Part shown: positions 10,474-23,091 of the stretch, piece by piece
How positions within the stretch are numbered: the first letter of the stretch is position 1
Layout of the letters: every line of letters starts with the position of its first letter
Source of the DNA: Acutalibacteraceae bacterium
GTDB taxonomy: Bacteria; Bacillota; Clostridia; Oscillospirales; Acutalibacteraceae
Reading direction: 5' to 3'
DNA length: 23,091 nucleotides
Assembly (NCBI GenBank): GCA_045540315.1
Contig: JAZQHA010000108.1
Location: 1-23,091, forward strand
Notes under the pieces: generated by a model
What the model was told of the DNA's origin: nothing
The model's database searches: none
The model's input: the letters and a program-made list of their open reading frames with translations, nothing else
Program-made: the position numbers and the translations under genes

Positions 10474-10678
10474 TAAAAATATTTATAGCTAAATTATTAA
10501 TTATTATTGGCTGAAAAAACTTTAATTGATTTTTTTATTATTATATATAAAATCAATTGAAGATTTTTTTCTGGTCAAGATTTTATAATATCATGTGTGG
10601 GCCAAAAATAAAAATCGATAAGAAATGACTTTAATATTTATCGAAAAGAAATTTTATTTTCAAAAGGAGGTTTTTATC

Positions 10679-10969
10679 TTGATTAATATAGCAAGTAATA
10701 GCGATAGAATCGCTTATGGTATTAAACATTTTAATCTTGATGAAGTGGTTGATTTGCCTAATTTAAATAGATATCAATTAACTCCTGGCAGTACTGTATT
10801 TATTATTGAAAATTCTAAATACTATATGTTAAATGGTTCTAAGAAGTGGGTTGAAATTAATCCTTTTGGTAAAACCATTGTTTCTGGAGATGGTGGAAAT
10901 GAAGAAAATCCTGATAATCCAGACATCCCTGAGAATGATGAGGTTATCTATGACGGAGGTACTATCTGA
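10679..10969 (+). CDS. Hypothetical small protein (about 96 aa), first gene of rightward late block; TTG start assumed
   Basis: AAGGAGG at 10664-10670, 8 nt before in-frame TTG at 10679. The ORF-track ATG at 10625 has no SD. TGA stop. Confidence 0.35.
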   Translation: MINIASNSDRIAYGIKHFNLDEVVDLPNLNRYQLTPGSTVFIIENSKYYMLNGSKKWVEINPFGKTIVSGDGGNEENPDNPDIPENDEVIYDGGTI

Positions 10970-11325
10970 TGGCTACTACTCTTAATACAACTTTTAAACT
11001 AAAAAGAGGTACAGCCGCAAGATGGGCTGAAGTAAATCCAATTTTAGAGCAAGGCGAGCCAGGCTTTGTATATGATCAAAATCGTTTAAAAATTGGAGAT
11101 GGAGTAACTCCATGGAACGACTTACCTTATATTGATGGTAAGCGTGAAGTTGCTGATTATAATAACTTATCTGATTTTCCCGTAGTAGGAGAAACAGGTG
11201 TTATTTATAAAGCATCTGACGAATTAAGTCTTTATCAATTTAATGCTACTACTAAAGAATATGAAAAATTAAGTAGTGGTCAAGGAATTGATGATATAAA
11301 AATAATAAATGGAGGAAACGCTTAA
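10969..11325 (+). CDS. Small protein consisting of the HylP-like tail-fibre N-terminal domain (118 aa)
   Basis: KRGTAARWAEVNPILEQGEPGFVYDQNRLKIGDGVTPWNDLPYI resembles the N-terminus of streptococcal phage hyaluronidase HylP (KRMKAAEWARSDVILLESEIGFETDTGFARAGDGHNRFSDLGY); TAA stop. Confidence 0.6.
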   Translation: MATTLNTTFKLKRGTAARWAEVNPILEQGEPGFVYDQNRLKIGDGVTPWNDLPYIDGKREVADYNNLSDFPVVGETGVIYKASDELSLYQFNATTKEYEKLSSGQGIDDIKIINGGNA

Positions 11326-12701
11326 TGGCTGAATTAAATACTATTATTACTCTTCGCCAAGGTACTACCGCTGAATGGGCAGATTCTGTTGTTCGTTTAC
11401 GTGAAGGCGAAATGGGTCTTGAGTATCTGACTGATGGTACTGTAAAAATTAAAGCTGGTATCTTAGGTGAAGATGGTCAAGGTAAGCTATGGGCTGATTT
11501 ACCTTATATTGGTAGTGATGTTAAGTCTGCTAATGTATTCCAGGTTGAATTAGCTGAAGGTGATATTGATGATATCGCTGCTATTGAGGCTAAAGTCGCT
11601 GAAGAAAATGCTGAAAAGCAAGATGGCGATGTAGCTATTGTAAAAGCATTAATTGCTGAAGGTAGATATTCTTATACTTCTTATGTATATGAAGCTGCTC
11701 TAGATGTTGAAGGTGAAGATTCTACTCATGGCTGGAGCGCAATGGATGGAAACTATAGCGCTGCTAATGTTTTCTTAAAAGATAAAATTACTTTAGCTGG
11801 TGATTACGGCAAAGATTCTCGCAATGATAAAATTACTTCTATTGGTAATTTACGTATTGGTGATGAAATTGCGGCCGGCACTTCTTTACAATCTTTATTG
11901 ATGGATATGTTATCTCAAAGATTACAACCAAGTGCTACTCCTACTCAACCTGCCGCAAGTATTACTTTATACACCGATGGTTCCACTAAGAAAGTTACTG
12001 CTGGTGCTGTTGAAGTAGGTACTACTATTAATCCTTATTATGTAGCTTCTTTAAGCGCAGGTTCTTATACTTATGGTCCTGCTACTGGAATTACTGCTTC
12101 TTCTTATGCTGTAAATTCTACTGGTCGCAAGACTGTTGATGGAGCTACTGCTGACACTACTGAAGATAGTGCTACTACTGCTACTGGCTCTTTTAATAGC
12201 TTTGTAGTAGATGATGATACTAGCTATAAGTTAAGTGTATCTATCCCTCATGAAGCTGGTGCTGTTGCGAATGATAATTTAGGTAGTGAATCTAATCCAA
12301 AAGTACAGATTGCTGCTGGTACTAAGACTGCTAATTCTGGTACTGTAAGTGGTTATCGCGCTTGGTTCTGTGGTTATAAGAATGGAACTAACGCTTTAGC
12401 AGATGCTACTGCTATTACTGGCGCACAAGTTCGTGCTCTTGGTAATTCTGCAAATGGTTCTTGGAAATCTTCTATGGATGTTTCTCAAATGAAGCAAATG
12501 TTCTTTGCGGCTCCTGCTGGTAAGGGTTACAAGCCCGTTATCAAGGATGCTTCTACTACTGCTCCTCAGACTGTTTTAGGACCAATTACTGTAAGTGTTG
12601 AAGGCAAAGATGGTTTTGATGCTATCGATTATGATGTTTGGTATGTAGCAAATGCTTCTGCAGCTTCTGGTTCTGCTAAACTAAACATTACTAGAACTTA
12701 A
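11325..12701 (+). CDS. Tail fibre-like protein with HylP-like N-terminal domain (458 aa)
   Basis: N-terminus RQGTTAEWADSVVRLREGEMGLEY...GKLWADLPYI; Thr/Ser/Ala/Gly-rich C-terminal region; TAA stop. Confidence 0.65.
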   Translation: MAELNTIITLRQGTTAEWADSVVRLREGEMGLEYLTDGTVKIKAGILGEDGQGKLWADLPYIGSDVKSANVFQVELAEGDIDDIAAIEAKVAEENAEKQDGDVAIVKALIAEGRYSYTSYVYEAALDVEGEDSTHGWSAMDGNYSAANVFLKDKITLAGDYGKDSRNDKITSIGNLRIGDEIAAGTSLQSLLMDMLSQRLQPSATPTQPAASITLYTDGSTKKVTAGAVEVGTTINPYYVASLSAGSYTYGPATGITASSYAVNSTGRKTVDGATADTTEDSATTATGSFNSFVVDDDTSYKLSVSIPHEAGAVANDNLGSESNPKVQIAAGTKTANSGTVSGYRAWFCGYKNGTNALADATAITGAQVRALGNSANGSWKSSMDVSQMKQMFFAAPAGKGYKPVIKDASTTAPQTVLGPITVSVEGKDGFDAIDYDVWYVANASAASGSAKLNITRT

Positions 12702-12718
12702 TAAGGAGGAACTGAATA

Positions 12719-21837: not shown

Positions 21838-21879
21838 CTTCAAGATGTTTCATTTAAAAATGAATGAAACATCTTGAAG
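21838..21879. other. Perfect 17-bp-stem hairpin in the divergent region; canonical terminator in minus orientation and 5'-leader structure of the plus-strand collar gene
   Basis: CTTCAAGATGTTTCATT / AATGAAACATCTTGAAG with 8-nt loop, A10 run upstream (a T-run on the minus strand), SD AAAGGAA and ATG 21894 immediately downstream. Confidence 0.55.
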
Positions 21880-21893
21880 AAAGGAATGATTTT

Positions 21894-22439
21894 ATGTCAT
21901 TTACAAAAATTAATTATATTGATAATGAGACAATTATAACCGCAGAAAATCTTAACGCAATTTAGGATGAAATATTAAATGTTGCTCAATCTATTTATCC
22001 TATTGGATCTATTTATATGAGTATTAGTGATGTTAGCCCAGCCAGTTTTATTGGTGGTACGTGGGAACGTATAACTGATAAATTTTTATTGGGTTCCGGA
22101 AGTAGAAGTATAGAAGCAACTGGCGGACAAGAAAGTGTTAGCTATACACCAGCAGGAAAGAACGCTGGTACTGCTTTAAGTACTTCTTAGATACCAGCTC
22201 ACGCTCATGTTCAAAAACTAGTAGCATCTACTTTAAATAATAATGCTGGTTCTACTTCTGCCACTGGTTATCAAACTAATATAGGATGGTGGACTACTAT
22301 GCAAGTACACAATGCTACAGTTGAAACAAGCAGCGTAGGTAGTGGCAGTAGTCATACTCATACATTTACTGGAACAGCATCTACTATTTCAACTATGCCA
22401 CCTTATTTAGTTGTTAATATTTGGAAAAGAGTTAGTTAA
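21894..22439 (+). CDS. Phage tail-collar-domain protein, inverted paralog D (181 aa) with two in-frame TAGs (21963-65, 22188-90)
   Basis: MSFTKINYIDNETIITAENLNAI(TAG)DEILN aligns with NLNDIQDAIL of paralog A. TS(TAG)IPAHAH aligns with INEMP/VAEMP/NINQMP of the other paralogs. The C-terminus is PPYLVVNIWKRVS. Confidence 0.55.
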
Positions 22440-22458
22440 CTAACTCTTTTCCAAATAT
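22417..22458. repeat. Perfect 42-bp palindrome at the junction of convergent collar-gene paralogs
   Basis: ATATTTGGAAAAGAGTTAGTTAACTAACTCTTTTCCAAATAT is its own reverse complement; encodes IWKRVS-stop on both strands. Confidence 0.8.
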
Positions 22459-23091
22459 ATACTGCATAATATGGCGGTATATTATTGTGAGGATATGAAC
22501 CGCCAGTATACTAAATATGGGAAGAGTCGGTAACTGCTAAAGAAGTATCAGTACTTCCTATATAAATTTGTGGACTTGCTATATATTCATGCGCATACCA
22601 TGCTGGTCTTGTTAAAGCATGATTATGATAAGGCATTTCATTAATAGTTAATGTGTGTGTAGCTTCACCACCAGTAGAGCCAACAGTATAAGAAGTGCCT
22701 GCGCCTAATAGGAATTTGTCGTCTATTCTTTCCCAAGTTCCGCCAAATAAATAAGCAGGGCTTTCATTACTAATGGTCATATAGATAGAACCAGGTGGAT
22801 AATTTTTTTCTAAATCTAAATTAAACCATCCCTAAAAACCATCTGGAGTTTTAGTTGCCATACAAACAATAACATGACTTGTAGGATAACAAATATAGCT
22901 AGCATAATCTCCGACTGAGGTAATAATACAAATACCATCGCTAGCGTTTGTTAATCCGGCTGTATAAGGAGAATTTTTTGTATTAAAATCATATTTACAA
23001 ATACAATTTTCAGTTATTGCGAAAATATCACTAACATAATCTTTATATATAATATTATCCTAAATATCATTTAAATTCTATGCTGTAATAA
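22436..23091 (-). CDS. Phage tail-collar-domain protein, paralog C (5' end beyond window), with in-frame TAGs at 23078-80, 23060-62, 22832-34, 22511-13
   Basis: Continuous frame from the window edge: ...NLNDI(TAG)DNIIYKDY...YPPGSIYMTISNESPAYLFGGTWERIDDKFLLGAG...TLTINEMPYHNH...SSHI(TAG)YTGGSYPHNNIPPYYAVYIWKRVS, ending TAA at 22436-38. Confidence 0.5.

Follow-up and report, generated by a model that had tools for sequence, protein, structure and literature searches.

In phages that use genetic code 15, in which the amber codon TAG is read as glutamine (Gln), it is mostly structural and lysis genes that are recoded, about 40% of the TAG-recoded genomes have been found to carry suppressor tRNAs, and there are clades with genomes of 150-200 kb (10.1101/2021.08.26.457843). 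According to the model published for these phages, early genes are written in the standard code and suppressor tRNAs then switch the code, so that structural and lysis genes become completable (10.1101/2021.08.26.457843). In crAss-like phages, mass spectrometry has confirmed the TAG-to-Gln change (PMC9523058). In phAss-1, a human-gut phage of about 136 kb for which the name Phassvirus is proposed, TAG occurs in 28% of the open reading frames (ORFs), including tail-fibre ORFs, and at positions where homologs have Gln; this phage relies on three suppressor tRNAs (tRNA-Sup-CTA) and does not itself encode a synthetase (Babkin et al. 2023, PMC10607447). Here we analyse the contig JAZQHA010000108.1 (the window: the whole public contig, 23,091 bp), which is very probably a fragment of a gut phage of about 100-200 kb that uses code 15, with TAG standing for Gln in its fibre and collar genes.

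The window resembles the code-15 phages (Borges et al., 10.1101/2021.08.26.457843) in that TAG stands opposite Gln, TAA and TGA are the sole terminators of the recoded genes, structural genes are favoured by the recoding and early genes can be read in the standard code. An in-frame TAG is present in 9 of its 33 genes, versus 26% in the Sapphire clade, and its relatives lie on contigs of 100-200 kb, as in the large Jade, Sapphire and Agate-type clades, the window itself containing no terminase for clade assignment. As among the code-15 phages, standard, TAG-recoded and TGA-recoded genomes are intermixed among these relatives. Unlike those phages, the window shows neither a suppressor tRNA nor release factor 2 (RF2), and it has a conserved TAG in an early YqeY-like gene as well as one coupled TAG stop. 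With phAss-1 it shares TAGs in tail-fibre genes at positions that are Gln in homologs, whereas the three suppressor tRNAs of phAss-1 have no counterpart on the contig. Megablast of the whole window against the GenBank phage collection gave no match, and there is hence no close DNA-level relationship between it and phAss-1; the nearest protein similarity to a cultured phage is 34%, to Faecalibacterium phage FP_Brigit.

In classical amber suppression, a tRNA with a CUA anticodon (tRNA-CUA; supE-type tRNA-Gln(CUA) and T4-like phage amber suppressors) competes with release factor 1 (RF1) at UAG and rescues occasional nonsense mutations, whereas the window uses UAG as a regular, selected codon in many genes. 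Host-level reassignments, such as code 4 in Mycoplasma and code 25 in Absconditabacteria, are genome-wide and shared with the host. Phages with code 25 carry in-frame TGA in about 90% of their genes (10.1101/2021.08.26.457843). The window likewise uses a stop codon as sense, but its recoding is partial and module-biased, implying that the code is switched in the course of infection. Publications of 2021-2022 already covered the phenomenon, its preference for structural genes and the regulatory role proposed for it, and the window opens no new question; it represents a further lineage among the many large gut phages with amber recoding and offers a clean small example in which TAG seemingly ends one early gene as a coupled stop and stands for Gln in late genes.

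When ORFs were re-called with TAA and TGA as the sole stops, eight of the 14 late genes were found to hold 16 TAGs in frame but neither TAA nor TGA, in agreement with the original prediction, made on the DNA alone, of at least eight late genes that are interrupted by TAG only and end in TAA or TGA. These eight genes, together with a hairpin behind the first of them and a TAG-free gene used below as a control, are:

12719..15217, plus strand: tail-fibre-like gene, 832 codons; TAG at 15179..15181 (codon 821), stop TAA at 15215..15217
15226..15257, plus strand: terminator-like hairpin of 14 bp, 3' of the TAA of 12719..15217; z = -6.4
15287..16702, plus strand: fibre gene with an Mtd_N-like N-terminus, 471 codons; TAG at 15647..15649 (codon 121)
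16877..17182, plus strand: gene with an Mtd_N-like N-terminus, 101 codons; TAG at 17090..17092 (codon 72)
17205..18671, plus strand: late gene without TAG, 488 codons; control for dN/dS
18735..19946, plus strand: fibre/receptor-binding-like gene, 403 codons; TAGs at 18846..18848 (codon 38) and 19149..19151 (codon 139)
20745..21242, minus strand: Gp10_C/collar paralog 1; TAGs at 21036..21038, 21015..21017 and 20802..20804 (codons 69, 76 and 147)
21258..21770, minus strand: collar paralog 2; TAGs at 21549..21551 and 21363..21365 (codons 74 and 136, counted from the TTG at 21770)
21864..22439, plus strand: collar paralog 3 (PF21939, E = 5e-18); TAGs at 21963..21965 and 22188..22190 (codons 34 and 109)
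22436..>23091, minus strand: collar paralog 4, 5' end off the contig; TAGs at 23078..23080, 23060..23062, 22832..22834 and 22511..22513

The stop codon of the 14 late genes is TAA in 12 cases and TGA in two. Since TAG accounts for only 16% of the off-frame stop trinucleotides in the recoded late genes, the restriction of the interruptions to TAG is not a matter of chance (about 4e-15, from the off-frame stop-trinucleotide frequencies). With code 11 instead of TAG as sense, the late region broke up, coding coverage fell from 0.74 to 0.56 and long gaps without start codons were left (e.g. 15650..15796). The contig therefore needs translation table 15: code 11 fragments a third of the late region and truncates tail-fibre and receptor-binding proteins, which are important for host-range prediction. 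Two further predictions concerned the end of the fibre gene 12719..15217, and both stood up. The C-terminal extension beyond its TAG resembles the C-terminus of the neighbouring fibre, with TAG kept in one relative (L008) and replaced by a sense codon (Asn) in another (L006), where the C-terminus continues; and the 14-bp hairpin follows the TAA rather than the TAG.

Close relatives fetched from other samples allowed selection to be compared on either side of the TAGs. Their amino acid identity to the window is 92-100% for L008, 79-92% for L006 and L007, 45-85% for L009 and L010, and 84-96% for the early-module relatives L100-L106. The ratio of nonsynonymous to synonymous substitution rates (dN/dS), computed at the DNA level against these relatives, was 0.09-0.24 in the segments 3' of in-frame TAGs versus 0.16 in upstream segments, and 0.15 (against L006) in the TAG-free control 17205..18671, so that downstream segments are indistinguishable from upstream segments and from a gene without TAG. 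Individually, the 15287 gene gave 0.16 before and 0.19 after its TAG, and the 18735 gene 0.11-0.12 between and after its TAGs. Truncation at these TAGs without downstream conservation, which would have spoken against recoding, was thus not seen in the relatives. Together with the sharing of TAG positions by independent assemblies, the dN/dS values exclude pseudogenes and assembly errors.

We then read the residue opposite each TAG from the DNA of relatives, counting true sense codons only. Full-length database homologs (P0001-P0005) were dropped as evidence, because they are code-15 gene calls in which the 'Q' is itself a TAG; P0001, P0003, P0004 and P0241 are stored with TAG translated as Q, and alignment to them would be circular for Gln. 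The public protein collection in fact already holds products of this contig translated in this way (P0241 is 100% identical to the read-through YqeY product), and the circularity is visible in contig look-ups, which carry the flag 'translates_to_query: no'.

At the DNA level, TAG exchanges with CAA or CAG between the window and relatives at 84-97% amino acid identity. Codon 121 of the 15287 gene is CAA (Gln) in L008, at 92% amino acid identity, and Gln in L006 and L009; codon 72 of the 16877 gene remains TAG in L008 (100% amino acid identity), where L006 and L007 have CAA (Gln); and for codon 38 of the 18735 gene, which like codon 139 is a conserved TAG in L006, L007 and L008, L009 and L010 have a genuine Gln codon. 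Conversely, TAGs of relatives fall on CAG or CAA of the window at codons 357, 168, 287 and 59, codons 168 and 287 being those of the 18735 gene. The collar paralogs behave similarly. In paralog 1 (Pfam PF21939, E = 1e-20), codon 76 faces Gln in six loci and codon 147 faces Gln in L006, while codon 74 of paralog 2 faces Gln in four loci. Within the family, codon 34 of paralog 3 lies opposite a Gln of paralog 1 (NLNDIQDAIL) and at the position of codon 109 the other paralogs have Glu or Gln; the paralog alignments quoted in the original prediction proved correct. Peptides that would be diagnostic of Gln under code 15 are STNDQAHADNVAATAK (15287 gene) and FGGTWEQIK (collar paralog 1).

A wider survey added 78 loci (L011..L088) from IMG/VR, collected through the conserved C-terminal domain of the 403-amino-acid protein. 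About 50 of them gained 10-60% coding coverage with TAG as sense, about 25 used the standard code and one was TGA-recoded. The presence of standard, TAG-recoded and TGA-recoded genomes among relatives by this fibre domain indicates that the code has switched repeatedly, in line with the literature; TGA-recoded relatives are L073, which shares this fibre domain, and L096, which was identified by way of YqeY. A first all-versus-all tally of residues opposite TAG was discarded, as shadow and antisense ORFs had given spurious W, L and Q in non-recoded loci. The tally was then limited to the longest non-overlapping ORFs, and an antisense ORF of the window, opposite a GC-rich gene for a major-vault-protein-like (MVP-like) product, was removed by hand. 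Across about 60 related TAG-recoded loci, Gln made up 425 of about 980 site-weights opposite TAG (43%), followed by Lys (76) and Glu (74), at 8% each. Taken together, the exchange with CAA/CAG and the first place of Gln in the tally make Gln the best-supported and most likely meaning of TAG, as judged by comparison with relatives, and the code-15 reading proposed earlier is in this respect upheld. Pyrrolysine (Pyl) decoding does not fit: there are no Pyl genes or Pyl tRNA in the window and TAG swaps with CAA/CAG, the label 'tRNA-Pyl' that ARAGORN gives to every CUA anticodon being a naming convention only.

The early genes were also claimed to be free of internal TAGs and the recoding to be confined to the late module. 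The features that bear on these claims are:

18..10399, minus strand: early/metabolic module of 19 genes, for which the standard code suffices except in the YqeY-like gene
718..1194, minus strand: YqeY/GatB-tail-like gene, 158 codons; TAGs at 1147..1149 (codon 16) and 733..735 (codon 154)
6496..6765, minus strand: early gene ending in TAG; the TAG at 6496..6498 overlaps the GTG of the next ORF (TAGTG, 6494..6498)
6359..6496, minus strand: small Cys-rich ORF of 45 amino acids with a GTG start and the ribosome-binding site GGGAGGA; homologous to L100 5710..5853

The first claim failed on the YqeY-like gene, which the code-11 ORF list gives as 733..1137 and whose true extent of 718..1194 was revealed by the gene calls of relatives. 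A strong ribosome-binding site (AAGGAG) lies 6 nt 5' of the ATG at 1194, and the Pfam YqeY match improves with read-through from 29.0 bits (profile 22-139) to 43.2 bits (2-139). The TAG at codon 16 is conserved in L100-L106 and in all eight contigs with a homolog of at least 84% identity, distant homologs having Glu or Ala at this position, and at codon 154 L105 has Gln and L100 has Glu. The second claim held only as an enrichment: in-frame TAGs number 16 in 3959 codons of late genes versus 2 in 3288 codons of early genes (Fisher p = 0.003), and 8 of the 14 late genes carry them versus 1 of the 19 early genes (p = 0.0015). TAG is thus enriched in late genes and not exclusive to them, the YqeY-like early gene being recoded too. 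The stops of the early genes are TAA in 17 or 18 cases and TAG in one or two, depending on how the terminal TAG of the YqeY-like gene is read. The TAG that ends 6496..6765 looks like a true stop with translational coupling; a ribosome reading through it would cross the next ORF in another frame, for 28 codons that are not conserved.

The product of the YqeY-like gene is a free-standing protein that matches PHROG 1460 ('tRNA amidotransferase', E = 2e-11) and may assist in Gln-tRNA formation. Homologs lie at L100 10801..11277 and L105 7048..7524, and an internal Met20 could give a short form that does not depend on suppression.

Suppressor tRNAs were found in relatives. L022, a 60-kb IMG/VR contig, is syntenic with the window: an MVP-like gene (70% identity) occupies its minus strand and a fibre module its plus strand. 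Its tRNA array includes a tRNA-CUA (Rfam tRNA, 53.7 bits) located 4.7 kb downstream of the homolog of 18735..19946. If the phage of the window is syntenic with L022, its suppressor could lie just past the contig end. A tRNA-CUA is also present in L001, L049, L085 and L089, and Gln is the top residue opposite TAG in L022, L049 and L085 too.

These tRNAs fall into different forms. Those at L022 15152..15246 (minus strand), L049 17515..17603 and L085 11001..11085 are 85-95 nt long and have a Gln-like acceptor end (A1.C72, A1-U72 or U1-A72; G73) and anticodon arm, with a 15-23-nt hairpin in the variable region that is unusual for a Gln-type tRNA. A tRNA-CUA of 76 nt is identical in L001 (288..363) and L089 (9155..9230), and L090 has a tRNA-CUA likewise at 2777..2852 (IMGVR_UViG_3300045988_140357 and _141968). 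In each of these TAG-recoded relatives it is the single tRNA-CUA; it differs from the adjacent, normal tRNA-Gln(UUG) and bears G1-C72, G2-C71, G3.U70, A73 and an encoded CCA, the alanine identity set. TAGs of L001 face Ala at 3-4 sites and Gln at 1-2, with Ser, Lys, Glu and Asp elsewhere; some coincide with a conserved Ala in the Mtd_N motif, and others lie within a signal peptide and transmembrane helices. The close pair L089/L090 shows no informative TAG differences. From these features an undescribed TAG-to-Ala code is possible in the L001/L089 lineage, which is at about 42% amino acid identity to the window in the case of L001.

In the explanation that we favour, TAG would be decoded as Gln in the tail-fibre and baseplate-collar genes, where only TAA and TGA terminate, while the divergent early/metabolic module would be translatable by the standard machinery of the uninfected host and use TAG once as a coupled stop. 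Following the published model, a phage tRNA-CUA would be made after infection and charged with Gln either by the host glutaminyl-tRNA synthetase (GlnRS) or via the amidotransferase that acts on Glu-tRNA(Gln). The tRNA would then out-compete RF1, so that proteins with 1-4 TAGs could be completed only after the code change and fibre production would be tied to the late phase. The tRNA, its charging, the fate of RF1 and the timing are the parts of this scheme that we infer.

Several observations weigh against this explanation. Scanning the 23-kb window with ARAGORN and Rfam concordantly returned no tRNA and no other known RNA, as the original prediction had noted for suppressors, and no release factor or aminoacyl-tRNA synthetase was found in the window. 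Some 100 kb in total of DNA flanking the fibre, PRPP-synthetase-like and YqeY-like homologs (L006-L010, L097-L109) in the closest relatives, among them L006, L009, L100, L105 and L107, contained no tRNA either. Certain sites do not point to Gln: codon 821 of the 12719 gene lies opposite N, S or E, codon 139 of the 18735 gene opposite S, D, T or G, and codon 69 of collar paralog 1 opposite Leu in seven loci, with a conserved TAG in L006. Given the Ala-type suppressor of L001, Gln is not guaranteed across the wider group. Finally, the labels 'early' and 'late' derive from gene content and strand, and the TAGs of the YqeY-like gene mean that the partition between the two is not clean.

A first rival reading is that TAG is sense with a meaning other than Gln, for instance Ala, Ser or Leu according to the identity of an unseen suppressor tRNA. 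In its favour are the single tRNA-CUA of L001/L089 with an alanine identity set, unlike the nearby tRNA-Gln(UUG), the long extra arm and G73 of the L022, L049 and L085 suppressors, which are also typical of tRNA-Ser, and the Leu at collar codon 69. We nevertheless consider it unlikely, as TAG swaps specifically with CAA/CAG at well-conserved sites between the window and its closest relatives, Gln leads in L022, L049 and L085 as well, and L001 is a distant relative. Alternatively, there might be no code change at all and host factors might read TAG through at a low level, most of the product being truncated and a minority full length. The lack of a visible suppressor on the contig agrees with this, as do the TAGs 11 codons from the end of 12719..15217 and 4 codons from that of the YqeY-like gene, where truncation would be harmless. 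But with 2-4 TAGs per short gene, read-through of a few percent at each site would leave next to nothing of essential fibre domains such as the conserved HNNMPPY C-terminus, which lies downstream of three TAGs; moreover, purifying selection is equal on both sides of the TAGs and a syntenic relative encodes a tRNA-CUA, which together render leaky read-through very unlikely.

That the host itself reads TAG as sense, the phage mirroring the host code with no temporal switch, would explain why TAG is almost never a terminator in the window or its relatives. This is highly improbable in view of the strong depletion of TAG from 18 of the 19 early genes, the coupled TAGTG stop in an early gene and the closest cultured-phage similarity being to a Faecalibacterium phage. 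As to pseudogenes, assembly or sequencing artefacts or separate short ORFs, the fragmentation of the late region and the loss of coding coverage under code 11 are in their favour; their probability is practically nil, given that the interrupting stops are all TAG, that the same TAG positions recur in independent assemblies (L006, L007, L008, L100-L106), that dN/dS downstream is well below 1, which also argues against a degraded prophage, and that code 11 leaves start-less gaps.

A more elaborate version, which we regard as doubtful, gives TAG two time-separated meanings (coupled stop early, Gln late), perhaps places the YqeY-like protein within the code-change machinery and has lineages trying different suppressors. 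Here the YqeY-like protein, of a tRNA-binding type, could help a non-standard suppressor tRNA-CUA to enter the Gln-tRNA pathway and, as its own full-length form needs suppression, a feed-forward loop would result; related lineages would have varied the suppressor between a Gln-like tRNA-CUA with an extra arm and the alanine-identity form of L001/L089. A comparison of YqeY-like genes with TAG recoding found only one IMG/VR relative (L096); it looks TGA-recoded and thus reveals no specific link between YqeY and TAG recoding.

The plus-strand module begins at 10625, divergent from the minus-strand module, and consists of tail-fibre-like genes, several with Mtd_N-type N-termini, followed by the four Gp10_C/collar-domain paralogs in alternating orientation. 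Its first three genes lack TAG, so that recoding does not extend to every late gene. The remaining features are:

10625..10969, plus strand: late gene without TAG
10969..11325, plus strand: late gene without TAG, Mtd_N domain
11325..12701, plus strand: late gene without TAG
16816..16848: terminator-like hairpin between the end of the gene at 16702 and the start of the gene at 16877
19955..20000: bidirectional terminator between the convergent 18735..19946 (plus strand) and 20017..20304 (minus strand)
7871..10399, minus strand: gene for the MVP-like protein, 842 amino acids

Searches for longer copies of the window, by exact 40-50-mers in IMG/VR and the JGI metagenomes and by exact protein matches, gave no hit, and a PDB sequence search with collar paralog 1 returned nothing. 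The collar paralogs (20745..23091), oriented minus, minus, plus, minus, have inverted repeats at their borders (e.g. 21838..21879 and 22394..22481), and L006 1..1075 carries a collar gene with homologs of 20310 and 20017 upstream of its fibre module, in opposite orientation; the collar region could thus hold receptor-binding cassettes that are inverted or shuffled. In L008, the closest relative over the fibre module, a reverse transcriptase gene (RVT_1, 411 amino acids, 7 in-frame TAGs; 5458..6693, minus strand) directly follows the homolog of 18735..19946, where the window has 20017..20720, and suggests a diversity-generating retroelement.

On the minus strand, predicted products are of metabolic or counter-defence type: PRPP-synthetase-like, nicotinamidase/isochorismatase-like, metallophosphatase and nucleotidyltransferase proteins, and further cREC_REC, MarR-like, T7 gp5.9-like RecBCD inhibitor, YqeY-like and MVP-like (842 amino acids) proteins. 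The early genes at 368..2599 (minus strand), with the PRPP-synthetase-like, nicotinamidase-like and T7 gp5.9-like RecBCD inhibitor genes, are the edge of a large set related to nicotinamide adenine dinucleotide (NAD) (cf. L100 9395..16719, L105 and L107), which relatives extend with the NAD-salvage genes NAMPT, NMNAT-like, NAD synthase and NADAR, and in L107 with SIR2; L107 additionally has a Thg1-like gene and a sigma-70 factor. The set probably serves counter-defence or NAD reconstitution.

GC content at third codon positions differs sharply between the modules, at 0.15 for late and 0.31 for early genes, and reaches 0.47 for the MVP-like product's gene. The MVP-like gene is a compositional outlier also in overall GC (0.47 versus about 0.35 elsewhere) and in its Lys codons (69 AAG, 1 AAA), and contains no TAG. 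Its product has an MVP shoulder domain (PF11978, E = 9e-19) plus a Vault_3 repeat, and homologs occur in L009, L022 and L100 and, at 42% identity, in the 460-735-kb 'uncultured phage' records LR756500-LR756503.

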